This document shows, piece by piece, positions 6,162 through 43,634 of a stretch of DNA of 64,000 nucleotides. How positions within the stretch are numbered: the first letter of the stretch is position 1; every line of letters begins with the position of its first letter. Origin of the DNA: Candidatus Pyrohabitans sp. JdFR-17 (lineage in GTDB: Archaea; Hydrothermarchaeota; Hydrothermarchaeia; Hydrothermarchaeales; BMS3B); contig MTME02000068.1 of NCBI GenBank assembly GCA_002011115.2, positions 606 to 64,605 of the forward strand, in the 5' to 3' direction. The notes beneath the pieces were generated by a model. The model was given only the letters and a program-made list of their open reading frames with translations. It searched no databases and was not told the origin of the DNA. The translations under genes and the position numbers were made by a program.

Positions 6162-7385
6162 TCATTTAAAGAGATGAACCTTAATCTCCTCTCCTCGCCT
6201 TGTGTCCCTCTCTATGATTGCATAGCCATCTACGAGAGCGCTCCGCAGGTTTGAGGCTATTGCGGAGACATTGTACTTCTCGCCGCTCTTCATCAGGGGC
6301 ATCTCACTGCCCTCGAAGCCAATCGGCTTGGCATAGCCGTTCTCCAGGTGTACAAACACTAGGTTAGCGATGTCTGCGGCGTCGGTGTCCTTGGTTGAGA
6401 GCAGTATATCTTCAGTTATTCTCGCGTAGATGAAGGGCTCCTCGACACTGCCCAGGAAGTATCTGCGCAGGTGAAGCTGCGCCGCAACCAGCGCACCCGT
6501 GGGCTTGCCAGGCAGCGCGAAAATAGGTGTGTTCTCTATGATGCCCACCGCTATGGGCTTACCTGGTCTGGTCTTGACCTTATACAGCACCACCTCGCCC
6601 AGCTCCTCTATAGCGCGCAACACGTAGTCGCGTTTGCCCACGCTTACACCGCCGCTGGTGACAACGCAGTCGTAGCGCTTTGCAGCGCTGGCAAGCGCTT
6701 GCTTTGTGGCTTCGTAGTCATCCTCAATTACACCGAGATAGCTCGTCTCGCATCCCCACTGCTCCAGCAGAGCCATTACCACGAAGGAGTTTACATCGCG
6801 GAGCAAGCCTCTGGCAATTTCATTACCCGTTGCGAACACAGCTACTCGAGGCTTGCAGTACACTTCCACTTCCTCAATGCCCAGGCCTTTTAGAATTCCA
6901 AACTCCTGTGCTCTTATCCTTGTTTTCGCCCTTAGGATAATCTCCCCCCTGCGGTAGTTGCTTCCCTGAGGTACCACCTTGGTCCCCTTCTCAATAGGTA
7001 TACCGTACAGCAATTCGCCCTCAAGGCGGGCATCCTCTAAGCGGAGTACGCAATCGGCTCCAGGGGGCAGGAATGCTCCCGTTGCGATGTACATCGCCTC
7101 GCCTTTGCGAAGCTCAGGTAGAGACTCATAAGCATCGCCAGCATATATGCTCCCTACCACACGCAGAGGATAACGTTCAGCGTCTTCGCTACGCATTGCG
7201 TAGCCATCGTAGCTGGCTATGTCGTGGGGTGGTGAGTCCTCTGTGGCAAGCACATCCTCAGCCAGCTCCCGTCCGAGCAGCGAGAGCTCCACCCTCACAA
7301 CTTCCGTCTCGCGATTGAAGTAAGACCTCTCTCTCAGCGTGTCGATAATCTCTCGCGCTCTGCTCAGGGGCACAAGTTTTTCCAT
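6162..7385 (-). CDS. moeA: Molybdopterin molybdenumtransferase MoeA
   Basis: 407 aa with MoeA-like segments VAVFATGNEI, VTSGGVSVGKRDY and KTRPGKP. Confidence 0.85.
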   Translation of the reverse strand: MEKLVPLSRAREIIDTLRERSYFNRETEVVRVELSLLGRELAEDVLATEDSPPHDIASYDGYAMRSEDAERYPLRVVGSIYAGDAYESLPELRKGEAMYIATGAFLPPGADCVLRLEDARLEGELLYGIPIEKGTKVVPQGSNYRRGEIILRAKTRIRAQEFGILKGLGIEEVEVYCKPRVAVFATGNEIARGLLRDVNSFVVMALLEQWGCETSYLGVIEDDYEATKQALASAAKRYDCVVTSGGVSVGKRDYVLRAIEELGEVVLYKVKTRPGKPIAVGIIENTPIFALPGKPTGALVAAQLHLRRYFLGSVEEPFIYARITEDILLSTKDTDAADIANLVFVHLENGYAKPIGFEGSEMPLMKSGEKYNVSAIASNLRSALVDGYAIIERDTRRGEEIKVHLFK

Positions 7386-7502: not shown

Positions 7503-8153
7503 TTATAATTTTTCCCTCTCCAATCTCAACAGCAATTTTTCCACTATTGCCACACCTTCGCCGGTTAGGGAATACTGTCCTGCCTTATTTTTACTCACTA
7601 TCCCTGCGTCGATTAAAACACGAAGGTGAAAGCTCAGCTTTGAGGGGTCATCCATCTCTGTGCTCCTGGCAACCTCAGAAAACCTCCTCGCACCTGCATG
7701 AAGGAGATAGAGAGCTATCTTCTTGCGTATCGGGTTTGAAAGCGCCTTTATTACAGAATCGCTCAGCTTCGCCTCAACTTTGCGTTCAAGCCTCGCCTCT
7801 TCTAAGGTTTTCTTGACTATGCTCACCAGCTCGTCCACATTAAAAGGCTTTACAAGAAAGTCACTCGCTCCGAGCTTCATCGCTTCTACAACATCTGCAA
7901 TGGATGGAAAGGCGCTGATTATTATCACCCTGGTCTCAGGCGAAATCCTCTTTATCTCATCCAGCGCCTCCAAGCCCCGCATGTCCGGTAGCACCAGGTC
8001 AAGGAGCACAAGCTCTGGCTGAGTCTCCGTTAGCTTGCTTATGCCCTCGGTGGCGCTCTCTGCAGTGACCACTCCAAAACCATACCTGCGCAGTGCCTTT
8101 TCCAGCACGCTGGTAGTGTGCCTATCATCATCCACAATAAGTATGGTGCTCAT
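7503..8153 (-). CDS. Response regulator with C-terminal ArsR-like winged helix
   Basis: Receiver motifs (VDDD, LLDLVLPDMRG, LVKPF) plus LSNPIRKKIALYLL...LSFHLRVLIDAGIV. Paralog of 11145..11798. Confidence 0.85.
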   Translation of the reverse strand: MSTILIVDDDRHTTSVLEKALRRYGFGVVTAESATEGISKLTETQPELVLLDLVLPDMRGLEALDEIKRISPETRVIIISAFPSIADVVEAMKLGASDFLVKPFNVDELVSIVKKTLEEARLERKVEAKLSDSVIKALSNPIRKKIALYLLHAGARRFSEVARSTEMDDPSKLSFHLRVLIDAGIVSKNKAGQYSLTGEGVAIVEKLLLRLEREKL

Positions 8154-8720: not shown

Positions 8721-9713
8721 ATGAGCGGACGGAATAAATTGAGATGGGTGGCACTACCTCTACTGGTTCTATTTGCAGCATGCATATCAGGTGGAAATAG
8801 CAAATATATGCCTGAGGTTGAGTTAGAGAAGCCCCATTACTACTATGACGTGCTGGTGCATAAGGACTACCTGTATGCCACCTCACCCTGGGGTTTAGAC
8901 GTGTTCTCTGTCAATGGCGAAAAGCTGTCCCGCATTGGCGGATTTGAAACACCCGGCGAAGCCCAGACTCTCGCTCTTTCGAGGGATAGACTCTACCTCA
9001 GCGACACCACGGGCAGGCTTTTTGTGTTGAATGTGAGCACACCCTCATTGCCGCGTTTGATTGCCGAGCTAGAGTTAAACAAAACTGCCCAGAAGATTGT
9101 GATTTCGGGAAACAGGGCATATCTAGCGTGTGTCTCTTCAGGGCTGGTAATTCTTGACATTCAGAAACTTAAAGAGGTGGGGTTCTACAAGCCCAAAAAA
9201 TACAGCTACCCGAAGGGAATATTTCTCCAAGGCGAAAGGCTGTACATCGCAGACTTCACGCTAGGTATGTACGTGGTAGAGGTGAGGAACGACTCCCTTA
9301 CACTCTTAACTTCGCAATCCACATCCAGCGTGGCTCATGATGTGCTTGTCTCCAATGGCTATGCCTACGTTGCAAGCTCCGACGGGGGAGTGGACGTATT
9401 TAAAATCTCTGGAAAAGTACCTGTGTGGGTACAGAACCTTCCTCTCCCCGGCTTTGCTCTTCGCCTGGAAAGGTATAGAGATTACCTCCTAGTTACCCTC
9501 GCAAATGAAGGCGTTGCTTTGCTCGAGATACAGAGGGACGGCAGGCTCAAGCTGATTGAACAATACGACACCCCTGGCAACGCGTACGGCATAGCTCTTG
9601 CCAATGGCTACGCATATGTGGCTGACTATGATGGAGGCATAGTGGTGCTCGACCTCTCGCAGCTTCCAGAGCTTGCGCCAGTGGCTTTCGCTATGCCGGA
9701 GGTGAGTCAATGA
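8721..9713 (+). CDS. Secreted lipoprotein, LVIVD-repeat beta-propeller
   Basis: Lipobox LFAAC. About seven LVIVD-like blades: GLDVFSV, RLFVLNV, GLVILDI, GMYVVEV, GVDVFKI, GVALLEI, GIVVLDL. Confidence 0.7.
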   Translation: MSGRNKLRWVALPLLVLFAACISGGNSKYMPEVELEKPHYYYDVLVHKDYLYATSPWGLDVFSVNGEKLSRIGGFETPGEAQTLALSRDRLYLSDTTGRLFVLNVSTPSLPRLIAELELNKTAQKIVISGNRAYLACVSSGLVILDIQKLKEVGFYKPKKYSYPKGIFLQGERLYIADFTLGMYVVEVRNDSLTLLTSQSTSSVAHDVLVSNGYAYVASSDGGVDVFKISGKVPVWVQNLPLPGFALRLERYRDYLLVTLANEGVALLEIQRDGRLKLIEQYDTPGNAYGIALANGYAYVADYDGGIVVLDLSQLPELAPVAFAMPEVSQ

Positions 9714-11167
9714 AAGCAAGTGTGGGTACCAAAATGATGCTCGCCGTAGGCATAATAGTGTTTCTTTCAGTACAGGGCATCTTCTACTACATGAGCGAAA
9801 GCCACGAGAAGAACATAATGGAACAGCTCCACCAGCAGGCAAAGAGCATCGCTGACCAGATTCTCCTGGTAAGGCTTTGGGCGGCGGAGAACAGAGAACG
9901 TGTTACACCAGTACCGGCGGAACTCACCTATGAGCTCTCAGAACTTTCAAATGAAATGTACGACTACAAGATTAAGCTAGTAACCATGAAACCCAGAGAC
10001 CCCGAGAATTACCCATCTGACAACTTCGAGAAATGGGTGATTCAGGAGTTTATGCAGGGGAAGGGCGGAGAAGAGTATGCGATAACTGGCGATTTTTATG
10101 AGTTTGCTGTACCTCTCTATGTAGAAGAGCCCTGCCTCAAATGCCACATTGACCAGGGCTATCGCGAGGGCGATCTGCGCGGTGCACTGGTGATAGAGAT
10201 ACCAGTTAACGAGGTGATGGCATCTCTCGAAAAAACCAGAAAAGAACTTATTATCTATGGGTTTGTGATTTCTCTCGGTATAATGCTGGCTATTCTGGGT
10301 ATTATGAGGATAGTGGTCATAACGCCTCTGAACAAAGTTAAGGAAGCTGCCATAAAGCTGGCGAGACGTGACTATTCCGCCCGCGTTGAAGTGGACAATG
10401 AAGATGAGCTTGGCGAGCTAGCCAAGGTGTTCAACTCTATGGTTGAGGAGTTAAAGAACAAAGAAGCTCAGGTGATTCAAAGTGAAAAGATGGCAACAGT
10501 GGGCAAGCTTGCCGCTGGAATAGCGCATCAGATAAACAACCCTCTCGCTAATATAATACTCTACTCACAGATTCACCGCGAGGATGTAAACGACGAGGAG
10601 ACAAAGAAAGTGCTGGAGATAATTGAAGAAGAGGCTTCCCTCGCCTCTAAGGTTGTGCAAGGACTTCTAGACTTTTCAAGACAGCGCGAATTTAAAAATG
10701 AGACGGTACAGGTTAATGAGGTTATAAGAAAAATGTTAAATATTCTTAAACCACAATTACAATATAAAAACATAAATCTTGAGCTTGACCTCGACAAGAA
10801 CTTGCCAGAGATTAAAGGTGACTCTGCAAAGCTTCTCGACGCCTTCATAAACATCGCCACGAATGCGATAGATGCAATGAAGGAAGGTGGGAAGCTGAGC
10901 ATCCGCACGTATAAAAGCGATGGAAAAGTGGTGGTGGAAATTGCTGACACAGGCGTGGGTATACCAGATGAGCATCTCAGCAAAATATTTGACCCCTTCT
11001 TCACCACAAAGGAGGTGGGCAAGGGTACCGGGCTGGGGTTATATATTACCTATAGTGTAATTGAGAAGCACGATGGCGAGATAGAGGTGAAGAGCAGGGT
11101 TGGAGAAGGTACGACCTTTAAGATCTACTTACCAGGTGAGGTGAATGCAGGAAATACTCATAGTTGA
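9710..11167 (+). CDS. Sensor histidine kinase with periplasmic DUF3365/Tll0287-like heme-c domain
   Basis: TM, then an extracytoplasmic domain with CLKCH and GALVIEIP, then TM and HAMP. H-box AAGIAHQINNPL, N-box NIATNAIDAM, G-boxes DTGVGI and GKGTGLGL. Confidence 0.85.
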   Translation: MKASVGTKMMLAVGIIVFLSVQGIFYYMSESHEKNIMEQLHQQAKSIADQILLVRLWAAENRERVTPVPAELTYELSELSNEMYDYKIKLVTMKPRDPENYPSDNFEKWVIQEFMQGKGGEEYAITGDFYEFAVPLYVEEPCLKCHIDQGYREGDLRGALVIEIPVNEVMASLEKTRKELIIYGFVISLGIMLAILGIMRIVVITPLNKVKEAAIKLARRDYSARVEVDNEDELGELAKVFNSMVEELKNKEAQVIQSEKMATVGKLAAGIAHQINNPLANIILYSQIHREDVNDEETKKVLEIIEEEASLASKVVQGLLDFSRQREFKNETVQVNEVIRKMLNILKPQLQYKNINLELDLDKNLPEIKGDSAKLLDAFINIATNAIDAMKEGGKLSIRTYKSDGKVVVEIADTGVGIPDEHLSKIFDPFFTTKEVGKGTGLGLYITYSVIEKHDGEIEVKSRVGEGTTFKIYLPGEVNAGNTHS

Positions 11168-11798
11168 GGACGACCCCAAACTTAGAGAGGGACTTAGGAT
11201 ACTCTTGGAAAAGAAGGGTTACTCGCCCAAGATCGCCGAGGACGGAGTGAAGGCAATAAACATGATTAAGAAGCAGAAATTTGACCTGGTAATCACTGAT
11301 CTCGTAATGCCGGGCGCTGATGGCATGGAAGTGCTGAGGAGTGTTAAGAAGTACTCCCCCCTCACCAAGGTGATAATAATCACCGCCTTTGGTACTGTAG
11401 ACAGCGCCGTACGCGCCATGAAGATGGGGGCGAGCGACTACATACTAAAACCCTTCAAGGTGGAAGAGATAAGAAATAAGATTCTGCGCCTGCTGGAAGA
11501 GACCCGCATAGAGGAGGAGAGCAGGGAGAGGATAGAGGCGCAGGAACCGGGTAAGGATGTACTCAAGTCTCTCTCAAATCCGATAAGGCGCAGGATAATG
11601 GAATACCTCCACGCCAAAGGTAAGGCGAGGTTTACCGACATAATGAACTACCTAGGCATAGACGAACCTGCCAAGCTCGGTTTCCATCTGCGTGTTCTAA
11701 AGCAATCTGGGCTTATAGCGCAGGATGAGAACCGTCACTACTACATTTCCGAAGCCGGAAAGCGGGCCTTCATGACATTGCTGTCCCTTGAGGGTTAG
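11145..11798 (+). CDS. Response regulator with C-terminal ArsR-like winged helix
   Basis: Receiver plus LSNPIRRRIMEYL...LGFHLRVLKQSGLI. Overlaps the kinase gene end. Confidence 0.85.
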   Translation: MQEILIVEDDPKLREGLRILLEKKGYSPKIAEDGVKAINMIKKQKFDLVITDLVMPGADGMEVLRSVKKYSPLTKVIIITAFGTVDSAVRAMKMGASDYILKPFKVEEIRNKILRLLEETRIEEESRERIEAQEPGKDVLKSLSNPIRRRIMEYLHAKGKARFTDIMNYLGIDEPAKLGFHLRVLKQSGLIAQDENRHYYISEAGKRAFMTLLSLEG

Positions 11799-11966
11799 TT
11801 GTTTAAATAAATTATTAAATTTTGGCAGGATTTTAAATTGGAGTATTTGAATTAGGTGGCTTTATAAAAATTTAATTTAACTAATTCTTGTGGTATAAAC
11901 TATTTTTTAAAAAAAGTTTTATCATTTCAAAATTTAGTGAATATCATTCAGAGCGGAGGTGAAAAT

Positions 11967-14447
11967 ATGGAAATAAGCATGAGCAGGCGTGAGTTCATAA
12001 AAACCTCAGCGGCGACCGCAGCTATGCTTGCCGCTGGTATGAGTGCTCCTGCGATGGCTGCGCAGGGTGATGGGAAGATAAAGTTTGGCCGCGCTCAGTG
12101 CAGATTCTGTGGTACGGGGTGCACAGTGCTCGTAGGTGTGCGCAACGGCAGAGTTGTTGCCGTCAAAGGCGATGCCAATTCACCCATAAACTTCGGCAGG
12201 CTGTGTATGAAGGGTTATTCCCTGCCCCACATAATGTACGGAGGCGGTGGCAAAGAGCGCCTGACCAAGCCAATGGTCAGACAGCCCGATGGTAGTTTCA
12301 AGGAGGTAAGCTGGGACGAAGCTCTGGAGCTGATCGCAGATACCTTTGCAAAGTACATCAAGGAGTACGGCCCGGACAGCGTTGCCTGGTACGGCTCAGG
12401 GCAGAACACCACTCAAGAAGCATACGCTGCTAACAAGCTGTTTAAAGGTATAATTGGCACTGCCAACGTTGAGGGTAATCCCAGGCTGTGTATGGCTTCT
12501 GCGGTAGGAGGGTACCTCAACACCTTTGGCGCAGACGAGCCCGCTGGGAGTTATGACGACATAGACTATGCGGACACCTTCTTCATAATAGGCTCAAACA
12601 TGGCAGAGCAGCATCCAATGCTCTTCCGCAGGGTTATAGACAGGAAGAGCGCATATCCAGACAGGGTGCGCGTTATAGTAGCAGACCCGCGCACAACGCC
12701 AACGGCGAGGTACGCGGACCTTCACCTCAAATTCAAGCCGGGTACAGACATGTACCTGCTGAATGCAATGGCTTATGTTATAATAGAAGAGGATCTGGTC
12801 GACTATGAGCACCTGAAGCACTGCACCTTCAGAGTCGGTCTTGGTCCTGCCGGCGAAGAGGTGGACCTCGACGGATTCAAGGAGTTCCTCAAGGACTACA
12901 CGCCAGAGAAAGTTTCCGACATAACCGGCGTACCCGCCGAGGACATACGCTTAGCTGCGAAGTGGTTCGGACGCAAGGGTTACTCTGCGCTAAGCATGTG
13001 GACCATGGGCTTGAACCAGCGCACTCAGGGTGTAGAGCTTAACTGTCAGGTGCACAACCTGCATCTGCTAACCGGCAAGATAGGTAAGCCCGGTTGCGAT
13101 TCTCTTAGCTTGACAGGGCAGCCTAATGCGTGCGGAGGTACACGCGAACAGGGCGGATTAACTCACATCCTGCCGGGGCATAGAGCAGTTGCCAACGAGA
13201 AACACCGCAAGGAGGTCGCCGAGGTCTGGGGCGTGCCCGTTGAACAGATGCCCAAGAAGCCCACCGGGCCAGCGGTCAACATGTTCATGCGCCTAGAGAA
13301 GGGTGATATCAAGGCAATATGGATAAACACCACCAACCCCGCACATAGCCTGCCCAACTGCGACCGCTATGCGGAGGCGATGCGAAAAGCATTCACTGTG
13401 GTGAGCGACATATACTGGAATAAAACTACTGAAGTTGCGACAGTTGTTCTCCCCAGTGCAATGTGGGTAGAGAAAGAGGGCATAATGGGTCAAACCGATA
13501 GAAGAAGCCAGTTCATACCGAAGCTGGTAGACCCGCCAGGCGAGGCAAAGCCCGACTTCTGGCAGATTAACGAGGTCGCCAGGCGAATAGCAGAGAAGCT
13601 GGGCAGAAAGGTCAAGTATGCTGTCAGGGACAGGAAAGACCCGGTAAAAATCCTGAGCACAATAGAGGTCTACGGTCTTGGATTCTACGATGACCCGAGG
13701 GTTAAGAAAGGGGAGATGACCCCAGAGGAGGCTGCCTGGAACGAGTACAGGGTACTCACAAAGGGTCAGGATGTCGACCTCTATGGTGCCACCTACGAGA
13801 AGCTCAAAGCCCATGCAGGAGGCGTACAATGGCCATGCCCGAGCACAGAGTTTGACAACCGCGGCAGCAACAAGCGCTACATCTCCCGCGATTATGCTAT
13901 AAAGGTCTTCGGTACAGACAAGAAGAGGTATGCCACCGGCTACGTTACGCTCTACGACCAGCACATGGAGGAGCACGGCTATCCGGGACCAATAAACTAC
14001 TATGGTGGGCACAAGCTCAAGAACACAAAGGACAAGGCGGTTATCCGCGCATTAACGCCTCGTATGGACTACGAGATGCCCGACAGCAGCTATCCCTTTG
14101 TGCTCAACACCGGCAGAGTTATAGAACACTGGCACACTGGTACAATGACCATGCGTGTGCGCCTGCTGCGTGAGCTTAATCCAGCGGCCTACGTGGAGAT
14201 TCACCCAGATGATGCAGACAGGTTGGGCGTAAAGAGTGGTGAGAATGTGATGCTTATCTCACCGCGCGGCAGTATCATTCTGCCTGCATGGGTGACGGAG
14301 CGCGCCCAGCCTGGCATGGTGTTCGTGCCCTGGTTCGACGAAAAGAGGCTTATCAACGACCTAACCGTAGACGTGCCCGATAGCTGGTCAAAGGCGAAAG
14401 AGCCTGACTACAAGGTGTGCAAGATTAAGGTGGTCAAAGCCACCTAA
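11967..14447 (+). CDS. napA: Periplasmic nitrate reductase catalytic subunit NapA-like (molybdopterin oxidoreductase)
   Basis: Start moved to the ATG after the GGAGGTGA RBS. Tat signal SRREFIKTSAATAAMLAAG. [4Fe-4S] motif CRFCGTGCTVLVG...GRLCMKGY. Followed by napG/H/D homologs. Confidence 0.8.
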   Translation: MEISMSRREFIKTSAATAAMLAAGMSAPAMAAQGDGKIKFGRAQCRFCGTGCTVLVGVRNGRVVAVKGDANSPINFGRLCMKGYSLPHIMYGGGGKERLTKPMVRQPDGSFKEVSWDEALELIADTFAKYIKEYGPDSVAWYGSGQNTTQEAYAANKLFKGIIGTANVEGNPRLCMASAVGGYLNTFGADEPAGSYDDIDYADTFFIIGSNMAEQHPMLFRRVIDRKSAYPDRVRVIVADPRTTPTARYADLHLKFKPGTDMYLLNAMAYVIIEEDLVDYEHLKHCTFRVGLGPAGEEVDLDGFKEFLKDYTPEKVSDITGVPAEDIRLAAKWFGRKGYSALSMWTMGLNQRTQGVELNCQVHNLHLLTGKIGKPGCDSLSLTGQPNACGGTREQGGLTHILPGHRAVANEKHRKEVAEVWGVPVEQMPKKPTGPAVNMFMRLEKGDIKAIWINTTNPAHSLPNCDRYAEAMRKAFTVVSDIYWNKTTEVATVVLPSAMWVEKEGIMGQTDRRSQFIPKLVDPPGEAKPDFWQINEVARRIAEKLGRKVKYAVRDRKDPVKILSTIEVYGLGFYDDPRVKKGEMTPEEAAWNEYRVLTKGQDVDLYGATYEKLKAHAGGVQWPCPSTEFDNRGSNKRYISRDYAIKVFGTDKKRYATGYVTLYDQHMEEHGYPGPINYYGGHKLKNTKDKAVIRALTPRMDYEMPDSSYPFVLNTGRVIEHWHTGTMTMRVRLLRELNPAAYVEIHPDDADRLGVKSGENVMLISPRGSIILPAWVTERAQPGMVFVPWFDEKRLINDLTVDVPDSWSKAKEPDYKVCKIKVVKAT

Positions 14448-14551
14448 AACCTTATTTATTTTTAAAGCAGGTCTTACTAAATTTTATTTTATAATCAGAT
14501 TTATAAATTATTGGGGCAGTATACTTAAAATAAAAGTTTCTGGTGTTATAT

Positions 14552-14992
14552 ATGCGGCTTGCAATAGTGCTTTTCCTGATAATGCTCATTCTCGCAGGGT
14601 GTGTCGAGAAGGAAGAGACAGTTGTAGCTACAGAGAAAAAACCTTCACCGCCGCTGGCTGAGGAAGCTCCTGAAACCCAGGTTCAGAAAGAAAAAGTTGA
14701 AAAGAAAGCTGGACTGACAATAGCTGATATCCTCAATAACCCGGCGGCATACGAAGGCAAGGAGGTAATACTGCGCGGCAGAGCTACGCCTGGCTTAGCC
14801 TTTGAATTTGTGGATGAGCAGCCATATTTGCTGAGCGATGGTACGGGGGAGATATGGGTGATTACCCGGGCTATGATGCCCATGCAGGGGGCTGAGATAA
14901 CGGTGAGAGGCGAGGTGGTGGTACCCTACCAGATTAAAGGGCGCCACTACGAGGTTGCGCTCATTGAGATTGAAAGGGAGGAAGAGTATTGA
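14552..14992 (+). CDS. Small lipoprotein with OB-fold-like C-terminal domain, function unknown
   Basis: Lipobox LAGC, E/K-rich linker, then YEGKEVILRGRA...ITVRGEVV. Overlaps the napG start. Confidence 0.5.
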   Translation: MRLAIVLFLIMLILAGCVEKEETVVATEKKPSPPLAEEAPETQVQKEKVEKKAGLTIADILNNPAAYEGKEVILRGRATPGLAFEFVDEQPYLLSDGTGEIWVITRAMMPMQGAEITVRGEVVVPYQIKGRHYEVALIEIEREEEY

Positions 14993-15732
14993 GGCTGAGC
15001 AGGAGGAGCTTTATAAGGAGCTCTGCGCTGCTGTGGTTCGGCTTTTTTGGGTTTAAGATGAGAAGAGACGTGCCTGTCATCCGTCCTCCAGGCGCAACGA
15101 GTGATTTTCTTGCACGCTGCATACGCTGCGGTAAGTGCGGCGAAGCCTGCCCCTATGACTCCATAAAGTTTTTTGACATAAGCGCGGGTGCAAACGTGGC
15201 AACCCCCTACATAGACCCCCTTGAGACACCGTGTTATCTCTGCCTCAAGCGCACCAGCGAGGGCAAGGACGAGCCTCTCAGCGACTACCTTCTGTGTGGC
15301 GAAGCTTGCCCCACGGGCGCACTGAAGAAGATTAAGAACGACAGGGATACGCTGCTTTCGCTTCCCGATGAGCTGAAGATGGGTGTTTCTGTGCTAAACC
15401 GCGATATTTGCTTAGCCTGGCAGTACGATTCCTGCGGGGAGTGCTACTACAACTGCCCTCTGCGAGACGACGCCATGCTGGATTACCCGCCAAACGAGGT
15501 TATCACAGGTGCAGTAGGGATTCGCCCCTATGTTAATGAGAAGCACTGCGTGGGCTGCGGAATGTGCAACTACGTGTGCCCCGTGAATGAAAAGATAGCA
15601 AAGGCTACGGTCGAGCCTGGAAGGAAGCTTACATACTTCGAGGAGCGTTACGCTGCCATGGTGAGAAATGTTATAGGCAAAGCAGGACGCGAAGTAAAGC
15701 TTCCAGCTGTACGCGTGGTTAAGAGGGTGTAG
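14989..15732 (+). CDS. napG: NapG-like periplasmic poly-ferredoxin
   Basis: Tat signal SRRSFIR. Clusters CIRCGKCGEACP, CGEACP, CGECYYNCP and CVGCGMCNYVCP. Confidence 0.75.
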   Translation: MRLSRRSFIRSSALLWFGFFGFKMRRDVPVIRPPGATSDFLARCIRCGKCGEACPYDSIKFFDISAGANVATPYIDPLETPCYLCLKRTSEGKDEPLSDYLLCGEACPTGALKKIKNDRDTLLSLPDELKMGVSVLNRDICLAWQYDSCGECYYNCPLRDDAMLDYPPNEVITGAVGIRPYVNEKHCVGCGMCNYVCPVNEKIAKATVEPGRKLTYFEERYAAMVRNVIGKAGREVKLPAVRVVKRV

Positions 15733-15733
15733 C

Positions 15734-16588
15734 ATGAAGGTAAAGGTAATAAGGCGGGTGTTTCAGCTTGCTGTGCTTGCCGTGCTCATCGCTGTGCCTA
15801 TTTACACCCAGAACCCCATAGAGTGGGCACCCTCGCGCATAGCTCTGGGAGAGCTTCCTCCCCCCAGGGTTTCTCAGGTGTGGGGCGACACCTGGAGCTT
15901 CAGCTTCTACGGCATAAACATAACCCATCCCCTTGCCGCTCTGGAAGCGATTCTCGCCGCGAAGGTTATCTACCTCCCGCTTATTATGGCTGCTCTGCTA
16001 CCTATCGCGATAACGCTGCTCCTGGGCAGGGTTTTCTGCTCCTGGCTCTGCCCGGTAGGCTTTCTGCTGGAACTGAATCAGAGGTTTAGGAGCTTTCTCA
16101 GGGCAAGGGGGATAGGGGTAAAGGTAAAACTCAGAGATTACCGCTATCATCTGCTGGGCTTTACGCTAATGCTCACATTCTTCTTTGCCACTCCCATTGT
16201 ATCCGCCTTTGACCCTCCTCATGTGCTCGGAAGGGAGCTCTTTTACCTGTTCACCTATCACAGCGTGAGTCTTGGTGGCATAGCCCTCCTCACTGGAATC
16301 TTTGCCTTTGAGGCTCTTGCCGCCGAGCGGGGATGGTGCCGCTCACTGTGTCCCGCAGGAGGTCTTCTTTCTCTGCTTGGAGCGAAGAGATTGCTCAAAA
16401 TACAGAAAAGGAAGGAGCGCTGCATATTGTGCGGAGAATGCAACCTTGCCTGCCCCTACGACCTTCGCCCTGTAGAGCTGGGCATAGATAAGGATTTTAA
16501 CGATAAAACCTGTGATAACTGTGGGCTGTGCAGAGACGCATGTCCTGCGGGTGCCCTGTACTATACCATTAATACCACAAGGAGGTGA
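15734..16588 (+). CDS. napH: NapH-like membrane iron-sulfur protein
   Basis: Polytopic, with CSWLCP and CRSLCP motifs. C-terminal clusters CILCGECNLACP and CDNCGLCRDACP. Confidence 0.75.
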   Translation: MKVKVIRRVFQLAVLAVLIAVPIYTQNPIEWAPSRIALGELPPPRVSQVWGDTWSFSFYGINITHPLAALEAILAAKVIYLPLIMAALLPIAITLLLGRVFCSWLCPVGFLLELNQRFRSFLRARGIGVKVKLRDYRYHLLGFTLMLTFFFATPIVSAFDPPHVLGRELFYLFTYHSVSLGGIALLTGIFAFEALAAERGWCRSLCPAGGLLSLLGAKRLLKIQKRKERCILCGECNLACPYDLRPVELGIDKDFNDKTCDNCGLCRDACPAGALYYTINTTRR

Positions 16589-16830
16589 AAAAGTTGCCGG
16601 TATCCGGAGCTGTGATTGTGCCTGTGCCGGGCAAGGAGGAGGAGGTTGAAAAGAATCTCAGAGCTCTGCCCGGCGTGGAGGTCAAAGGCAGAGGCGATAA
16701 GGGCATCGCCATTGTAATTGAAGGCGAGTCGACCGCCGAACTGCAGAGGCTGTCTGAGAGAATAGAAAAGTGGCAGAGTGTTGTGGACTTCCAGCTCATA
16801 TACGTGAATGTGGAGGACGAGGTGGAGTGA
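16585..16830 (+). CDS. napD: NapD-like maturation chaperone
   Basis: 81 aa. The pattern VSGAVIVPVP...LPGVEV...GIAIVIEGES...VVDFQLIYVNVEDE matches the NapD fold pattern. Confidence 0.65.
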   Translation: MKKLPVSGAVIVPVPGKEEEVEKNLRALPGVEVKGRGDKGIAIVIEGESTAELQRLSERIEKWQSVVDFQLIYVNVEDEVE

Positions 16831-17921
16831 GCAGGCTGGGATTTGTAGGCACACCCTGTCAGATTCAGGGGCTGCGCAAGCTCCAAGCTCTTGCAGATAA
16901 TCTGGAGCTGGGCTGGGCAAAAAACGTGGGTCTAGCGATTGGTCTCTTCTGCATGGGCAATTGGAGCTACCCCTGCATCAAGGGGTACCTGGAGAAGCAC
17001 GGGATTGAGCTGGAAAAGGTAAATAGGGCCACAATCTCTGGATATGAGGTTGAGATATCGCTTAGCAACGGGAGAGTTGTGCTGCCCCTTACAGGTCTTA
17101 GAAAATACGTCCGCCTTGCCTGCAAGCTATGCCTGGATTTTACCTCAGAGTTGGCGGACGTAAGCGTAGGCAGCATAGGCTCACCTCGTGGCTGGAGCAC
17201 AGTAATTGTGCGCTCAGCGCATGGTGAAGAGCTGGTGAGCAAAGCGGAGGCAGCAGGAGTAATTGAGGTCCGCGAGGTTAACGAGGCACAGCTCAAAAAG
17301 CTTGAAGAAACTGCAAGGAAGAAGATTGAGAGGAACACCAGGAGGATTTTGGGCAGGATTAGGCAGGGCATGAAAATACCTCACTACAGTACGAAAGAGT
17401 TACAGAGCCTGCCCATAGTAAGTGGAAAAGACTTCAAAGAACTCTGGGATGAGATAGTGGTCACTGGTTTGTGCGATGCCTGCGGCGCTTGTAGCGCCGC
17501 GTGTGAGCACATAGAGATGAGGAACGGGCTGCCAAGGTTGAGAAAGCGCTGCCCCACCGGATGTGACAGGTGTTACATCGCATGTACAAGAACAGCACTC
17601 CCAGTTGAAGTACTTGAAAGGAGTTTTAACCTCGGAGGTACTCATGCACCCTACATTGGAAGGTATCGGCGCATACTTGCTGCTCGCGCCACCAGCGAGG
17701 AGCTTCACGCCCGCGCGCAGGATGGTGGCGCGGTAACCGCGCTGATAAAATTTTCTTTAACCGCTGGCATAATAGACGAGGCACTCCTCACCTGCAGAAA
17801 TGAAGAATGGGAGCCCTTCGCAGTCTTTGTAGGAGGCGCTTCGGAGGTTTCAAGGTGCGCTGGTTCTGTGTACGCCGCCTCAAGTCCACTCCCACTGCTG
17901 CGCACACAGAGTTCATATTAA
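16827..17921 (+). CDS. FrhB/FdhB-family (F420-reactive flavo-FeS) protein with permuted domain order: C-domain, Cys cluster, N-domain
   Basis: Probable GTG start, overlapping the napD TGA as GTGA. GFVGTPCQIQGLRKL...ACKLCLDFTSELADVSVGS is FrhB C-domain-like. Cys cluster CDACGACSAACE...CPTGCDRCYIAC. DGGAVTALIKFSLTAGIIDEALL...GSVYAAS is FrhB N-domain-like. Confidence 0.6.
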   Translation: MSRLGFVGTPCQIQGLRKLQALADNLELGWAKNVGLAIGLFCMGNWSYPCIKGYLEKHGIELEKVNRATISGYEVEISLSNGRVVLPLTGLRKYVRLACKLCLDFTSELADVSVGSIGSPRGWSTVIVRSAHGEELVSKAEAAGVIEVREVNEAQLKKLEETARKKIERNTRRILGRIRQGMKIPHYSTKELQSLPIVSGKDFKELWDEIVVTGLCDACGACSAACEHIEMRNGLPRLRKRCPTGCDRCYIACTRTALPVEVLERSFNLGGTHAPYIGRYRRILAARATSEELHARAQDGGAVTALIKFSLTAGIIDEALLTCRNEEWEPFAVFVGGASEVSRCAGSVYAASSPLPLLRTQSSY

Positions 17922-18021
17922 CTTAAACTAAATTAAAATTTAATTTTTAAAATCTCTTTTAAACCTCTTTTTAAAAAAACTTATTTAATATATGAAGGGA
18001 AGGTGATTACCGGGTGAGAAT

Positions 18022-19506
18022 ATGAAAACAAAGTATCTTTTAATTTTTGCAATAGCTGCAGCAATGGTACTTAGCACCGTCAACGCCCAGCAATTTAAAG
18101 AACCAGGTGCACCTTGTCTGAGCTGCCACGATACTGTGACCCCGGGCATAGTGAAGCAGTGGGAGGAGAGCAAGCACAGTAAGGTTGGGGTAAAGTGCTA
18201 CGTATGCCACCTCGCCAAGGATGACGACCCAGCCGGCTTTGAGCACATGGGATACAGGGTTACCGCCGTAGTTTCGCCGCGCTACTGTGAAAGCTGTCAT
18301 CCCAAACAGGTAGCAGAGTTTTCAAAGAGCAAGCACGCTTGGACGGCATTCATAGGACCACTGAAGCCCTGGTACAGAGAGATGGTCAAGCAGGGCAAGG
18401 ACCCGCTGAAACTTGAGACCGCCCTCGAGGTCAATCCTAGGGACTTCATTAAGGACAAGCTTACACCGCTTTATCCGGATAGCGGCGCTCTGAAACGTGC
18501 TGGTCTGCTTGATAGCAAAGACTACTACCACGAGAACCAGGTGCTTGGCTGCCTTGAGTGTCATGGTACCTATGTCATTGCTAAGGACGGCAAGATTCTA
18601 GACGGCTGGCCCAACAATGGTATCGGCAGGGTTAATCCCGACGGCACTATGGGTACCTGCTCGGCCTGTCACACCAGGCACAGGTTCAGCATAGCAGAGG
18701 CGCGCAAACCTGAGACCTGCGGTCAGTGCCATCTCGGCCCAGACCACCCGCAGATAGAGATATACGAGGAGAGCAAGCACGGCAATATCTACGCGAGCAG
18801 CGGAGAGCACTGGAATTGGGATGTGCCACCTGGACAGTGGGGTCCGGAGGATATAGCGGCGCCCACCTGCGCAACCTGCCACATGTCCGGCTTCGGCGGT
18901 GTGGTTGAGAGTACCCACGACGTTGGCGCGAGGCTCTACTGGGAGCTCCAGCCCAAGAAGTCAGTGCCTCAGTGGGACGACCCGAGCTTAGTGCCTCTGG
19001 GCAAGCAGAAGCCTGACGAGGAGCAGGCGAAGAAGGGCAGAGCTGAGATGAAGAAGGTCTGCAGAGTGTGCCACGCCAGCGACTGGGTTGACGGCTACTT
19101 CGAGAGCTTCGACAAGGTGGTGAGCGACTACAACAAGGTCTACGAATACACTGAGAAGCTCCTTAACACCGCATACGAGGAGGGCTTGATAGACAAGTCA
19201 AACCCCATCGACGAAATTCCAGAGATAATGTACTACTACATCTGGCACCACGATGGTCGCAGGTGGAGAATGGGCGCCAGCATGATGGCACCAGACTGGA
19301 CACACTGGAACGGTGCAGTTGACGCGCTATTGGACAAGCTCAACATGATGGAAGAATGGATAAAGATGCAGCGCGAGAAGAAGCAGCTTGAAGAGCGCGT
19401 GGCAAAGCTTGAGCAGAAGAAGGGCGTGTGCGGACCAACAGCGATTGCTGCAATAGCTCTGCTGCCACTCGCTGGCTACGCAGCGCTGAGGAGAAGGAAG
19501 CTCTAA
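18022..19506 (+). CDS. Octaheme cytochrome c, hydroxylamine-oxidoreductase (HAO/epsilon-Hao-like) family, C-terminally anchored
   Basis: Signal peptide and eight CxxCH motifs (CLSCH, CYVCH, CESCH, CLECH, CSACH, CGQCH, CATCH, CRVCH). HLGPDHPQIEIYEESKHG block. C-terminal coiled coil, then CGPTAIAAIALLPLAGYAALRRRKL. Confidence 0.75.
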   Translation: MKTKYLLIFAIAAAMVLSTVNAQQFKEPGAPCLSCHDTVTPGIVKQWEESKHSKVGVKCYVCHLAKDDDPAGFEHMGYRVTAVVSPRYCESCHPKQVAEFSKSKHAWTAFIGPLKPWYREMVKQGKDPLKLETALEVNPRDFIKDKLTPLYPDSGALKRAGLLDSKDYYHENQVLGCLECHGTYVIAKDGKILDGWPNNGIGRVNPDGTMGTCSACHTRHRFSIAEARKPETCGQCHLGPDHPQIEIYEESKHGNIYASSGEHWNWDVPPGQWGPEDIAAPTCATCHMSGFGGVVESTHDVGARLYWELQPKKSVPQWDDPSLVPLGKQKPDEEQAKKGRAEMKKVCRVCHASDWVDGYFESFDKVVSDYNKVYEYTEKLLNTAYEEGLIDKSNPIDEIPEIMYYYIWHHDGRRWRMGASMMAPDWTHWNGAVDALLDKLNMMEEWIKMQREKKQLEERVAKLEQKKGVCGPTAIAAIALLPLAGYAALRRRKL

Positions 19507-19535
19507 GCTTCCTATTCTTTTTCCTTTTTTGAACA
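19507..19535 (+). terminator. T-rich tract after the octaheme gene
   Basis: cttcctattctttttccttttttg immediately after the stop codon. Archaeal terminators are oligo-T tracts. Confidence 0.4.
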
Positions 19536-19582
19536 TGTTCGCACAAAATTATTTTATAAGCTTATGGGAGTTATTTATCACC

Positions 19583-19702
19583 ATGAAGAAGTGTGGAAAC
19601 TGCCAGCGGAGCGAGGAGGAAGTCCCTATCCTCAAGTACTATCACAAAGGCGATAAGCACTACATCTGCTCGCGCTGCCTGCCAATGCTCATCCATGGTT
19701 AG
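19583..19702 (+). CDS. 39-aa zinc-ribbon protein (below the ORF-track cutoff)
   Basis: Manual translation: MKKCGNCQRSEEEVPILKYYHKGDKHYICSRCLPMLIHG (CxxC...CxxC). Ends 6 nt before the next gene. Confidence 0.45.
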   Translation: MKKCGNCQRSEEEVPILKYYHKGDKHYICSRCLPMLIHG

Positions 19703-19708
19703 GGTACC

Positions 19709-20899
19709 ATGATAACACTGATATTGCGCTTTCTTGCAGCTGCGCTTGTGTATTTTAGTCTATCAATATTTCTGGGTATAGCAGAGATTTTTAATTTTTA
19801 CTTATTTGCCCCAGCCCACGTTCACTTTGCCTTTGTGGGCTTTGTTTGCGGTGTTATCATCGCTACAATGTACCAGCAGGTGCCCACACTAACCGGAGCG
19901 GAGCTTCACAACAATCGAGCAGCGAGGGCGAGCTTCTGGCTTTTCAACGCTGGAATAGTGTTATTCTCAGTAAGCTATCCAAAGTTCAGATTCCTCGCAT
20001 CTGCAGGCGCTTTGCTATTGCTCGTCGCCTTCTATCTTTTCACATACAATGTCATAGCAACCATATCCAGCAGGAAGGGCGAGAGCTACGTATTCAAATT
20101 CTACTCCGCCTCGAGTATTTTCCTGAGCATCGCCGCAACGCTGGGATTTCTGTTTACGGTTAACCCATCGCTAATAAGCTATCGCCCCGCCCATGTTCAC
20201 CTCGCTTTAGTGGGCGGTGTGGTACTTATCATCGCGGGCGCAATGTCCTGGATGCTCCCCATGGTTGTGGTTAAGGAGATTTACAACAAACGCTGGATGG
20301 ACTACGTGTTCTATGCTATTGTGGTCGCATCTCTCGGCTTAGCTTTTGGCCTAGCACTTTCCAAAACCATTGCCCTGCTTTCTGGCGTAGCTTTGCTGGC
20401 TGCTGTCCTGCTCTTCATCTACGACATGGTTAAGAGCTACACCGCTCCGACAAAAGCAGCGTTCAAATCCACGCCTGTGGAGGCCAGGTTCTTCCTTGCT
20501 GCCCTAGCCTACCTTGCGCTTACAATGCTGCTTGGCTTAGCTCTGGTGCTGTCTCACCCGGGCAGAGGCTTTGTGATTGCCCATGCCCATCTCGCCGCCC
20601 TTGGTTTTGTGGTTCAGACGGTGATTGGCGGGCTTTACCATGTGATACCCACGCTTGCATGGACGAAGCTCATAGCCCGCGAGAAGGAACGAGCACCCGC
20701 CTCATTTAAAGAACTTTTCTCAGCCAAGCGCTCACGATGGGTTTTTATAGCTTTTAACGTGGGCACCCTCCTCCTCGCCTCTGGATTTGCTTTTGCAATC
20801 AAAGGTGTAACCCTTTTTGGCGCACTTCTTGTTGCCTTCGCATGCATTGCCTTCGCAGCTGAGATGCTGGGTGTAATAAGGAGAGCTGGCGCTATTTGA
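19709..20899 (+). CDS. 12-TM membrane protein with three repeated AHxH helices (NnrS- or heme-copper-oxidase-subunit-I-like?)
   Basis: 396 aa. H37/H39, H162/H164 and H292/H294 sit in AHVHFAFVG, AHVHLALVG and AHAHLAALG, at predicted TM2, TM6 and TM10. Confidence 0.5.
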   Translation: MITLILRFLAAALVYFSLSIFLGIAEIFNFYLFAPAHVHFAFVGFVCGVIIATMYQQVPTLTGAELHNNRAARASFWLFNAGIVLFSVSYPKFRFLASAGALLLLVAFYLFTYNVIATISSRKGESYVFKFYSASSIFLSIAATLGFLFTVNPSLISYRPAHVHLALVGGVVLIIAGAMSWMLPMVVVKEIYNKRWMDYVFYAIVVASLGLAFGLALSKTIALLSGVALLAAVLLFIYDMVKSYTAPTKAAFKSTPVEARFFLAALAYLALTMLLGLALVLSHPGRGFVIAHAHLAALGFVVQTVIGGLYHVIPTLAWTKLIAREKERAPASFKELFSAKRSRWVFIAFNVGTLLLASGFAFAIKGVTLFGALLVAFACIAFAAEMLGVIRRAGAI

Positions 20900-20991
20900 A
20901 CCTGCGGAAGCTAAGCAATTTAATTTTGGTGAGTATGACCTCCGTTTCGCGTAGCGATAGCTCGCCAATCTCCTTAAGATTGATGAGAGGT

Positions 20992-21120
20992 GCGGCGCCC
21001 TCATACGGTTCGGAAGGGGTGATAGGGGTTACCCGGAACAAAGTTCCGGGTGACGAAGTGGGGAAGGCGACCCATCAGGTACGGATGGGTTGATAGGGGC
21101 GGGGAAGGCGCCCCTATATC
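20992..21120 (+). repeat. Structured hairpin repeat, copy A (long unit then short unit)
   Basis: 21011-21068 is near-identical (one G indel) to 54291-54347. 21082-21120 is related to 54248-54286. Each unit is closed by ATAGGGG...CCCCTAT. Confidence 0.7.
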
Positions 21121-21159
21121 TCAAATTTCTTATATCATAAACCCTAATAGATGTAGGAT

Positions 21160-21630
21160 ATGAGAATTAAAAAACCTGCCACAGAGAACGAACGCGTTCT
21201 CGCAACCTTTTTGCTTGTGTTCATAGTTTATTTTGGGCTGGACTCCCTTGCGTCGCTTGTATTTACAGAGGAGAGTCTATCCTTTCTGAGATATCGCCTC
21301 ACCCTCTCTTTTATTATAGGGATAATCGCAGGAGCGCTTTTCTACCTGTGGGCAAAGCCTGAGGAGGAAGAAAAGCCAGAGGAAAAGCCAAAGGTGCTGG
21401 ACAAGAGCTATGCTATACTTGAGCGCGCCCTGAGCGAGGACGAAGCTTTGCTTCTCGAGATAATAAGGGAGAATGAGGGCATAACTCAGGACTCGCTGCG
21501 GTTCCGCACAGGCTTTTCCAAATCAAAGGTCAGCGCTCTCCTGCTCAACCTGGAGAAGAAGGGAATAATTACCAGAGAGAGACTGGGAAGAACATACAAG
21601 GTTTTTATTGCAGACTGGATTAAGAAGTGA
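21160..21630 (+). CDS. Membrane-anchored winged-helix (MarR-like) protein
   Basis: Two N-terminal TM segments, E/K/P linker, then LLEIIRENEGITQDSLRFRTGFSKSKVSALLLNLEKKGIITRE. Confidence 0.6.
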   Translation: MRIKKPATENERVLATFLLVFIVYFGLDSLASLVFTEESLSFLRYRLTLSFIIGIIAGALFYLWAKPEEEEKPEEKPKVLDKSYAILERALSEDEALLLEIIRENEGITQDSLRFRTGFSKSKVSALLLNLEKKGIITRERLGRTYKVFIADWIKK

Positions 21631-33742: not shown

Positions 33743-33784
33743 TGATGGACATGATTTATTTTTTATATCTTAAAAATATAAATT

Positions 33785-34612: not shown

Positions 34613-34688
34613 TGCTCAAGGAAATGTTTTCGACATATATACCAAAAAGAGGGCGAAGCCCAAAGTTTTGTATACTATACCATATTGA

Positions 34689-36263: not shown

Positions 36264-36344
36264 TCTTGTTCATTATCTGAAAGGAAAATTCATATATCTG
36301 CAATATTATATGAAATGCCATAACTCACAAAGGAGTAAGATAAA

Positions 36345-37199: not shown

Positions 37200-37230
37200 G
37201 TTATGAGTTTCTAAGAAAAATGGTGGGAAA

Positions 37231-39767: not shown

Positions 39768-39773
39768 GTACAA

Positions 39774-43633: not shown

Positions 43634-43634
43634 A

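Follow-up and report, generated by a model that had tools for sequence, protein, structure and literature searches.

A putative nitrate-ammonification island of Nap and a reductive-type octahaem cytochrome in a Hydrothermarchaeota archaeon: a cassette also found in bacteria, with archaeal additions

In cable bacteria, a nap operon followed by the gene of a multihaem cytochrome resembling hydroxylamine oxidoreductase (HAO) forms the ammonification system, as documented by 15N rates and transcripts (Marzocchi et al.). This cytochrome (pMHC) is sister to epsilon-Hao and a homologue of the characterised Maribeggiatoa nitrite reductase, and the same nap-pMHC synteny occurs in epsilonproteobacteria (Marzocchi et al.). 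HAO-family proteins that lack the cross-linking tyrosine are reductases, and epsilon-Hao yields ammonium (PMC8042395). NapADGH is known from the archaeal phylum Hydrothermarchaeota through Carr et al. (2019), whose scheme shows it as the step from nitrate to nitrite. For these genomes, the tables of that study contain no nrfA, hao or nirK/S and one 'c552' entry, in JdFR-17; the octahaem cytochromes are named only 'cytochrome c554 and c-prime', and hydroxylamine or HAO is never mentioned. Kato et al. (2019) described Nap and Nar together with 'Nor', and no NirS/K. In this study, we analysed a 64-kb stretch of Candidatus Pyrohabitans sp. JdFR-17 (contig MTME02000068.1), here called the window, and we describe on its plus strand a conserved island of 13 genes (8721-21630), nine of which (11967-20899) include those for Nap and an octahaem cytochrome c. 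Very probably, this island serves the reduction of nitrate and nitrite and belongs to the known kind in which Nap is combined with a reductive HAO. What is new in it is a circularly permuted FrhB/F420-reductase module coupled to napD, and a zinc-ribbon protein accompanied by a triplicated relative of the haem-copper oxidases (HCO) that has no CuB site.

All nine genes listed in an earlier note on this DNA were confirmed on the plus strand between 11967 and 20899 by their open reading frames (ORFs) and family matches. The full order of the island is LVIVD protein, histidine kinase, response regulator, NapA, small OB-like protein, NapG, NapH, NapD, FrhB-like protein, octahaem, zinc ribbon, protein with 12 transmembrane (TM) helices, and helix-turn-helix (HTH) regulator. 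This order recurs in the loci L002/L008, L003/L007/L022 and L005/L021 and partly in L006, and at least four lineages of Hydrothermarchaeota have the whole island in synteny, of which Ca. Pyrohabitans jungbluthii is the closest. Since the same order recurs in several distinct lineages of the phylum, the arrangement is not due to chance. A scan of one genome per species likewise placed the closest relative of the 12-TM protein (90% identity) in Ca. Pyrohabitans jungbluthii JdFR-16, and further relatives in other Candidatus Hydrothermarchaeota metagenome-assembled genomes. The 12-TM protein itself is encoded, identical in every residue, on a 97 kb contig (Ga0314848_000081) of JGI metagenome 3300037583, and the host is accordingly an uncultured member of this phylum.

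Several components usual in such systems are absent, as the earlier note had stated. In a six-frame scan of the 64 kb, CxxCH motifs were confined to two ORFs, the sensor kinase (one motif) and the octahaem (eight motifs); the window therefore encodes no NapB, NapC, NrfH or NrfA. Pfam scans of the other large ORFs in the window revealed housekeeping, pilus and surface-glycosylation genes, with no NirK, NirS, Nor or other nitrogen-cycle enzyme among them. The related loci contain no napB, napC, nrfH or nrfA either.

The core of the island is not restricted to archaea. Three bacterial contigs were examined (L101, L102 and L103, the last named Nitrospirae bacterium), and each carries napA, a gene for a protein of about 135 aa, napG, napH, napD and the octahaem gene in the exact archaeal order. 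The encoded proteins are 68-75% (NapA), 44-51% (small protein), 58-61% (NapG), 46-52% (NapH), 43-51% (NapD) and 65-66% (octahaem) identical to those of the window. In L101 and L103, a Tll0287-type sensor kinase of the same kind as in the window, with a regulator, adjoins the cassette. The three contigs contain no NapB, NapC, FrhB-like or 12-TM genes, and no further cytochrome or quinol dehydrogenase lies alongside the cassette. Because they hold the same genes in the same order, we regard the core as common to bacteria and these archaea, and it is probably a nitrate-ammonification cassette that has been laterally shared.

These results change what can be called new. The earlier note had held that a Nap/Hao pathway wired to F420H2 or to a novel membrane haem protein would be new biology, and this claim has to be narrowed: the same collinear cassette is present in L101-L103, and ammonification by nap with pMHC or epsilon-Hao has been published. 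Nap in Hydrothermarchaeota was described before (Carr et al. 2019), and pathways of the type 'Nap plus Hao without NrfA' are known. The occurrence of such a pathway in an archaeon, in a form without NapB and NapC, is new, as are the FrhB-like and zinc-ribbon/12-TM additions. On the whole, the interpretation given in the earlier note was partly supported.

NapA (11967-14447, +; Pfam Molybdop_Fe4S4, Molybdopterin and Molydop_binding) is predicted to be a nitrate reductase of the monomeric class and periplasmic type, exported by the twin-arginine translocation (Tat) system with the signal SRREFIK (residues 6-12; Pfam TAT_signal 24.1 bits). Its best solved-structure match is the monomeric NapA of D. 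desulfuricans (659 bits). Heterodimeric NapA structures come next (480-510 bits), and formate dehydrogenases score lower (FdhF 384, F420-FDH 379 bits). On the NCBIfam models, the protein scored 670 bits for NapA, 507 for Fdh-alpha and 416 for NasC. The motif around the Mo-ligating cysteine, CMASAVGGY, is kept; over the stretch NPRLCMASAVGGY, the alignment shows no difference from D. desulfuricans NapA, and the QPNACGGxR segment matches the Desulfovibrio enzyme. The Mo-ligand cysteine stands in a CMAS context, without the Sec/Cys-His of Fdh. Both formate dehydrogenase and Nas, against which the earlier note had wished the protein to be placed, were rejected by the scores and the active-site motif; a grouping of NapA with formate dehydrogenases, which the earlier note had named as refuting its reading, was not observed. 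The nearest relatives beyond the archaeal clade are bacterial NapAs of 64-75% identity from Nitrospirae, Planctomycetota, Desulfobulbaceae, Thermodesulfobacteriota and Nitrospinota.

Between napA and napG lies the gene of a small lipobox protein with an OB-fold-like character, here called 'NapX' (14543-14992, +), which has a LAGC lipobox, belongs to no Pfam family and weakly matches a YgiW-type OB fold (E = 0.01); the gene overlaps the napG start by 4 nt. A family-less protein of about 135-150 aa is also kept at this position in the bacteria (L101 12394-12822, L102 12510-12929, L103 10466-10858). It appears to be a conserved, unnamed Nap component, common to the archaeal and bacterial cassettes. 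NapG (14989-15732, +) is a predicted Tat-exported polyferredoxin with an RRSFI signal, and NapH (15734-16588, +) is an Fe-S membrane subunit with four predicted TM helices; their best NCBIfam matches are NapG and NapH, respectively. NapH has the CX3CP motifs CSWLCP and CRSLCP and a C-terminal 2x[4Fe-4S] domain that is predicted to be cytoplasmic. The Tat proofreading chaperone NapD (16585-16830, +) matches Pfam NapD with 50.4 bits (cutoff 28).

The octahaem cytochrome c (18022-19506, +) has a signal peptide, exactly eight CxxCH motifs and a PF13447 match of 107 bits. Among solved structures it is closest to IhOCC of Ignicoccus (4QO5, 190 bits), and its other matches (6H5L, 4FAS and 4N4J) are Kuenenia Kustc0458 and the HAOs of nitrifiers and anammox bacteria. 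At the cross-link site, GWTY467TEG of NeHAO aligns to DWTH428WNG, with a weak local score and in register on both sides. The earlier note's reading of a protein without the cross-linking tyrosine is thus upheld, and the histidine that takes its place, His428, is at least 90% conserved in 24 aligned homologues. The catalytic Asp-His pair is kept: GPDHPQ is invariant and aligns to GVDHNN of NeHAO. From these motifs, the protein is assigned to the HAO family, in its reductive (Tyr-less) subgroup. Its clade is very large, with more than 6,900 matches below 1e-10, and many bacterial phyla have proteins that share 55-70% identity with the window protein and carry the annotation 'hydroxylamine oxidoreductase' or 'multihaem cytochrome'. 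The archaeal octahaems carry a C-terminal Cys-Gly-Pro followed by a hydrophobic helix and a basic tail (RRRKL), which fits a membrane tether in a cell without an outer membrane. The tail alone matched no NCBIfam model, and a named archaeal sorting signal was rejected.

Upstream of napA, the island begins with an LVIVD beta-propeller lipoprotein (8721-9713, +; Pfam LVIVD 82.6 bits), which keeps its syntenic place in the archaeal loci. The idea that it is an established part of Nap was rejected for want of family support. The sensor histidine kinase (9710-11167, +) consists in Pfam of an extracytoplasmic Tll0287-like domain (sCache_haem), HAMP, HisKA and HATPase, and has a single haem-c motif, CLKCH. 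Tll0287-like proteins are Cache domains with covalently bound haem c, and those fused to signalling domains act as selective nitric oxide (NO) sensors (PMC12889525, 2026 preprint). The response regulator (11145-11798, +; Pfam Response_reg and HTH_20/HTH_5) has an ArsR-type HTH output and is 93-97% identical across the syntenic loci. The last gene of the island encodes a membrane-anchored winged-helix regulator (21160-21630, +; MarR/DUF7343-like in Pfam), syntenic and 85-99% identical. Ca. Pyrohabitans jungbluthii JdFR-16 has a second octahaem, 66% identical, without nap or 12-TM genes (L019 4208-9551); the set includes its own Tll0287-type kinase, regulator and thioredoxin-like gene, and an LVIVD paralogue precedes it. 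Because this second LVIVD-kinase-regulator set adjoins an octahaem without nap genes, the Tll0287-type sensor seems to be tied to the octahaem.

The gene that follows napD encodes the FrhB-type flavo-Fe-S module (16827-17921, +), predicted to be cytoplasmic. It starts at the GTG at 16827 and overlaps the napD stop codon (GTGA), an arrangement of translational coupling to napD. The Pfam order is FrhB_C, 2x[4Fe-4S], FrhB_N (58 bits for FrhB_C and 142 bits for FrhB_N) and not the canonical (ferredoxin)-N-C. The motifs GTPCQ, GLFC, CxLCxD and QDGGAVTAL, which comprise the cluster cysteines and the QDGG flavin motif, are conserved. Among solved structures, the protein is closest to the F420-reductase subunits 8RIU_B of CO dehydrogenase (CODH; 183 bits) and 8RJA_E of formylmethanofuran dehydrogenase (Fwd) from Ca. 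Ethanoperedens; structures and enzyme assays have demonstrated that these two subunits switch ferredoxin-type enzymes over to F420. Residues 206-350 align to 8RIU_B 12-159 and residues 4-191 to 178-362; the protein is circularly permuted, since its two halves align in swapped order. The F420-type label given earlier is supported, the protein being closest to proven F420-reductase modules, and by this analogy it would bind and turn over F420.

The permuted proteins form a separate family that is wider than the island. In a metagenome scan, full-length relatives with the collinear permuted order numbered at least 27, only two of them nap-linked, both in the clade of the window, whereas at least 15 paralogues lie directly upstream of porG-porD-porA. 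In the por loci (L023-L042) the paralogue is the first gene of the operon, for example in L026 (7998-10628), as it is in L015 (1-2634), which points to a 2-oxoacid oxidoreductase coupled to F420 in these archaea. We therefore see in the permuted protein a portable module whose partners carry Fe-S clusters. As the bacterial cassettes have no such gene, we regard it as an archaeal addition.

The second addition consists of two genes. A 39-aa protein with four cysteines (MKKCGNC...) forms a zinc ribbon (19583-19702, +); the earlier note had recognised this gene, and the alignment of 10 copies places its start at 19583 and not at 19529. In these copies, the four cysteines and the C-terminal CLPMLIHG are invariant. 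The gene adjoins the 12-TM gene or lies near it in 12 of 14 loci. The source annotation places a 41-aa ORF of the minus strand (19571-19696) over it, and the zinc-ribbon gene has probably been missed in many annotations.

The 12-TM protein (19709-20899, +) matches Pfam COX1 with 76 bits (cutoff 35) and consists of three 4-TM repeats, each with an HxH motif (H37-V-H39, H162-V-H164 and H292-A-H294). An AlphaFold (AF2) model built on 13 homologues (pLDDT 92.8, pTM 0.91) resembled cbb3 CcoN most in Foldseek (8SMR_E and 3MK7; TM-score 0.84, 15% identity), followed by cNOR NorB (TM-score 0.67) and aa3/bo3 oxidases. According to this model, the protein has the haem-copper-oxidase fold. However, it does not have the catalytic CuB site: helix 7 (residues 194-217) holds no histidine, and none is conserved there. 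In a 2024 survey of the 12 described HCO families, the helix-VII histidines are conserved apart from a single Asp in gNOR, and a canonical oxidase or NOR was rejected on this ground. The protein has H37, H292 and H294, all three invariant among its close relatives, and their register with CcoN and NorB rests on local repeat alignments. No CuA or cytochrome c partner subunit is encoded at the locus, where only the 39-aa zinc ribbon is consistently adjacent. NnrS was rejected as well, because PF05940 gave 16.5 bits against a cutoff of 28 and matched 4 of 75 relatives; a literature search for a link between NnrS and HCO gave nothing useful.

The three repeats are alike in sequence. They scored 120-137 against each other in hhalign (probability >99%), compared with 19 or less in column-shuffled controls and 11-13 for the three segments of a genuine NorB; as single sequences, the repeats scored 34-51. 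A full-library profile search found 2,202 cluster representatives of the family at an E-value of 0.001 or less, 66 of them below 1e-30. Most are recognised by Pfam COX1, and the few named relatives, in archaea and bacteria, are called 'cbb3-type subunit I' or 'hypothetical protein'. Among 166 members aligned with hmmalign, 28 have the seven-His pattern, while the commonest pattern keeps only His39, His162 and His164, with Tyr at 292. The presence or absence of histidine covaries most between positions 37 and 294 (phi 0.90) and between 39 and 162 (phi 0.83), as values uncorrected for phylogeny, and several members lack exactly one such pair. Three two-His sites, placed symmetrically between adjacent repeats, would account for this pattern. 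One of them would be the canonical low-spin haem site, and another would lie where canonical oxidases hold no cofactor. Since hhalign against NorB gave only an alignment of repeat to third repeat, and not a residue register over the full length, the assignment of a site to the pore rests on symmetry reasoning and covariation. A bolder proposal combines these points: the zinc-ribbon/12-TM pair would represent an undescribed CuB-less HCO branch that retains an ancestral four-helix triplication, with three cofactors, probably haems, at His37+294, His39+162 and His164+292, one of them in the canonical proton-channel pore, and together with the permuted F420 module it would provide an F420H2-driven nitrate/nitrite route that no cassette-bearing bacterium has. 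We consider this combination unlikely as a whole.

The distribution of the pair bears on its role. It lies among housekeeping genes in L009, L010 and L015, and in these loci as well as in L013, L004 and L014 it occurs without any octahaem. In L014 (4270-9898), the gene of the 12-TM homologue comes after those of a sensor, with PAS and an extracellular EB_dh domain (haem-binding), two histidine kinases and a response regulator. At 5111-11236 of L013 (Ca. Hydrothermarchaeum profundi JdFR-18), the pair is read in the same direction as two NIR_SIR (Dsr-like) genes and the genes of a dihaem cytochrome c, NorB and a cupin, and it comes directly after norC, norB and the cupin gene; this NorB is a genuine cNOR, with 392 bits to the Pseudomonas enzyme. 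A cNOR beside sulfite/nitrite-reductase-like genes in an archaeon is itself unusual. Because the pair has two independent N-oxide neighbourhoods and is absent from the bacterial cassettes, it is probably an N-oxide accessory, with a part in the handling of NO or electrons, and not a substitute for NrfH or the obligatory partner of the octahaem. The earlier note had assigned the 12-TM protein to the partner slot held elsewhere by NrfH. This is unlikely, as the gene travels with the zinc ribbon in L009, L010 and L015 and beside norCB in L013, and not with the second octahaem of JdFR-16.

Taken together, the explanation that we consider fairly probable is a shared nitrate-ammonification cassette with archaeal additions. 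By analogy with characterised relatives, the monomeric-type NapA would reduce nitrate to nitrite outside the membrane, and the membrane-tethered Tyr-less octahaem would reduce nitrite, with ammonium as the most likely product as in epsilon-Hao and the pMHC of Beggiatoa and cable bacteria. NapGH probably feeds both enzymes, because it is the sole membrane redox module in the minimal cassette; NapB, NapC and NrfH would not be needed. The cassette would be controlled by the haem-c (NO-type) sensor kinase and its regulator. Since the C-terminal domain of NapH is the only cytoplasmic Fe-S surface of the Nap system in the island, the FrhB-like module most likely docks there and either links the F420H2 pool to Nap or acts like NapF. 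The zinc ribbon and the CuB-less HCO relative would most likely form a haem-binding N-oxide accessory that handles or tolerates NO, and the HTH regulator would be the third archaeal addition.

Several observations weigh against this explanation. The Tyr-less HAO of Kuenenia (HAOr) yields NO and not ammonium (PMC8042395), an activity on sulfur compounds has been proposed for HAO-family members that fall outside the clades of nitrifiers and anammox bacteria, and the crustal-fluid habitat of the relatives is nitrate-poor (Carr et al. 2019; Kato et al. 2019). NapA stays below the curated equivalog cutoffs of NF010055 (670 vs 904) and TIGR01706 (631 vs 931), models that were built on heterodimeric NapA, and we file it as a monomeric-type Nap homologue rather than an equivalog; NapG (114 bits, cutoff 269) and NapH (135 bits, cutoff 234) are also below their NCBIfam cutoffs. 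An electron route from F420H2 through NapH to the outside would oppose the membrane potential, and not all FrhB-family enzymes use F420, as the distantly matching chlorophyll reductase 5DQR illustrates. The FrhB-like and 12-TM proteins change much more quickly than the shared cassette: they are 56-64% identical between lineages in which NapA is 93% and the octahaem 89% identical, which could mean weak constraint.

The fate of nitrite could also be a different one. In a denitrification-type system, the octahaem would stop at NO, the 12-TM/zinc-ribbon pair would reduce or sequester it, and nitrogen would be lost as gas. The product of the Kuenenia enzyme, the NO-binding family of the sensor domain, the NO/O2-reductase fold of the 12-TM protein (TM-scores 0.84 to CcoN and 0.67 to NorB) and the place of its homologue after norCB in L013 agree with this idea. 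However, we regard it as rather unlikely, for the 12-TM protein lacks both helix-VII histidines, which are kept in all 12 catalytic HCO families (gNOR replaces just one active-site His), the locus offers no CuA or cytochrome c partner subunit, the bacterial cassettes do without the 12-TM protein, and in L013 its gene is additional to a real cNOR and not a substitute for it. It is very improbable that the octahaem is not a nitrogen enzyme at all and serves sulfur-compound reduction or extracellular electron transfer, sharing only regulation with Nap. The linkage to napAGHD is tight and repeated across two domains of life, the catalytic Asp-His pair of HAO is conserved, and the related pMHC and epsilon-Hao reduce nitrite to ammonium, even though clade-I proteins of the HAO family have been proposed to reduce sulfur species in vent Desulfobacterota, the nitrate-poor habitat is sulfur-rich and many homologues are orphan genes.

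Other alternatives concern the archaeal additions. It is decidedly unlikely that the 12-TM protein takes the place of NrfH/NapC as the dedicated donor of the octahaem, in the role of a new membrane quinol dehydrogenase or electron-entry module. In bacteria, the cassette with the octahaem does without it, no 12-TM gene adjoins the second octahaem of JdFR-16, the pair occurs without an octahaem in the six loci named above, and the sequence of the 12-TM protein diverges far more quickly than that of the octahaem (64% vs 89% identity). Against these points stand the adjacent and co-directional octahaem, zinc-ribbon and 12-TM genes of four archaeal lineages, the ability of some oxidase-family members to oxidise quinol, and the conserved His pairs at the start of TM2, TM6 and TM10, which is the outer side in oxidases and, on the topology expected from them, would face the octahaem. 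For the FrhB-like protein, a cytoplasmic maturation factor like NapF has to be considered, which would reduce or load pre-NapA before Tat export and provide no respiratory input. In Wolinella, NapF is a cytoplasmic protein that binds NapH and assists in the maturation of NapA. No napF lies in the cassette, the FrhB-like protein has a 2x[4Fe-4S] ferredoxin domain, and its gene lies directly after the chaperone gene napD and is translationally coupled to it. This possibility deserves serious attention, but it is doubtful: bacterial cassettes mature NapA without an FrhB-like gene, the nearest relatives of known structure are F420 reductases that act catalytically as parts of enzyme complexes, and paralogues occur in por operons, where no Tat substrate exists.

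The surroundings of the island contain further genes of interest. Genes for molybdenum-cofactor supply lie upstream, encoding by their Pfam matches MoaE (1007-1435, +), MobB (2457-2990, +), the ATPase, permease and binding protein of a molybdate/tungstate-type ABC transporter (3353-5569, -), FmdE (5556-6152, -) and MoeA (6162-7385, -), and from their adjacency they may be linked to the island. A second response regulator with the same ArsR-type output was found at 7503-8153 (-). A UbiA prenyltransferase (36345-37199, +) and a UbiD decarboxylase (62231-63727, -) on the same contig are compatible with a prenylquinone pool for NapGH. The stretch 30661-40907 has a GC content of 31-36%, compared with about 50% elsewhere in the window, and contains genes of membrane and glycosylation type (PTPS-related/YfhO-like, UbiA, LPG_synthase_TM and DUF362) and three ORFs of 490-540 aa without a family; it looks like an acquired cell-surface island. 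At 41532-46871 (-), two T2SSF-type membrane genes lie beside an unusually long T2SSE-type ATPase (1078 aa) with a PilB3_C end, which appears to hold two NTPase regions.

A Nap plus HAO-type cassette run by NapGH alone, under a haem-c sensor switch and common to bacteria and an early-branching archaeal phylum, would widen the range of organisms that may retain their nitrogen in the form of ammonium within the hot crust below the surface. Surveys based on nrfA and nirK/S overlook genes of this kind. The permuted module in nap and por operons would extend the module-swapping shown for CODH/Fwd, and it predicts an F420-linked nitrate reductase. With three alike repeats and no CuB site, the 12-TM protein may offer a handle on the origin of the haem-copper oxidase scaffold, and about 2,200 cluster representatives of its family carry only generic or 'hypothetical' names.

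Among described proteins, D. desulfuricans NapA (PDB 2NAP/2JIO) is the best solved relative of the window enzyme. The Mo-Cys and substrate-pocket motifs are common to both, and neither has a NapB, whereas the archaeal NapA holds two insertions at about residues 541-587 and 640-690. The nap operon of D. desulfuricans encodes the cytochromes NapC and NapM, unlike the window locus. IhOCC of Ignicoccus hospitalis (PDB 4QO5) is likewise an archaeal HAO-family octahaem without the cross-link tyrosine; it is a distant relative with Thr at the Tyr position, where the window protein has His. The F420-reductase subunits of Ca. Ethanoperedens share with the FrhB-like protein the 2x[4Fe-4S] ferredoxin domain and the FrhB-type FAD/[4Fe-4S] domain, and are add-ons to enzymes that use ferredoxin-type carriers. 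The window module differs in being permuted, its putative partner is the membrane-bound NapH (POR for the paralogues), and its use of F420 is predicted. NnrS resembles the 12-TM protein in its 12 TM helices, its linkage to N-oxide gene clusters and a weak Pfam similarity (16.5 bits). HCO subunit I (cbb3 CcoN and cNOR NorB) shares the 12-TM fold, and by the local repeat alignments the HxH in TM10 and a His in TM2 and TM6 of the 12-TM protein would be placed where haem and CuB ligands lie. The 12-TM protein differs from it in having no helix-VII His-His and no partner subunit, in its extra TM2/TM6 histidines and in its still visible repeats, and it falls outside the 12 described HCO families.

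As a whole, the island is most like the bacterial cassette of L101-L103 (Nitrospirae and others), with the same six genes, order and sensor type. The bacterial form lacks the FrhB-like, zinc-ribbon, 12-TM and LVIVD genes, its octahaem has no C-terminal anchor, and its regulator has an OmpR-type output in place of the ArsR-type output of the archaeal island. The systems of nap with epsilon-Hao (Campylobacterota) or with pMHC (Ca. Maribeggiatoa and cable bacteria) similarly consist of a periplasmic Nap followed by a Tyr-less HAO-family octahaem, without NrfA, NirK or NirS. For these, nitrate reduction to ammonium has been proposed and partly shown. The published systems are bacterial and have NapB, and NapF in cable bacteria, whereas the island of Ca. 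Pyrohabitans has neither NapB nor NapF and combines, in an archaeal host, a monomeric-type NapA and an OB-fold protein with the additional FrhB-like, zinc-ribbon and 12-TM genes.

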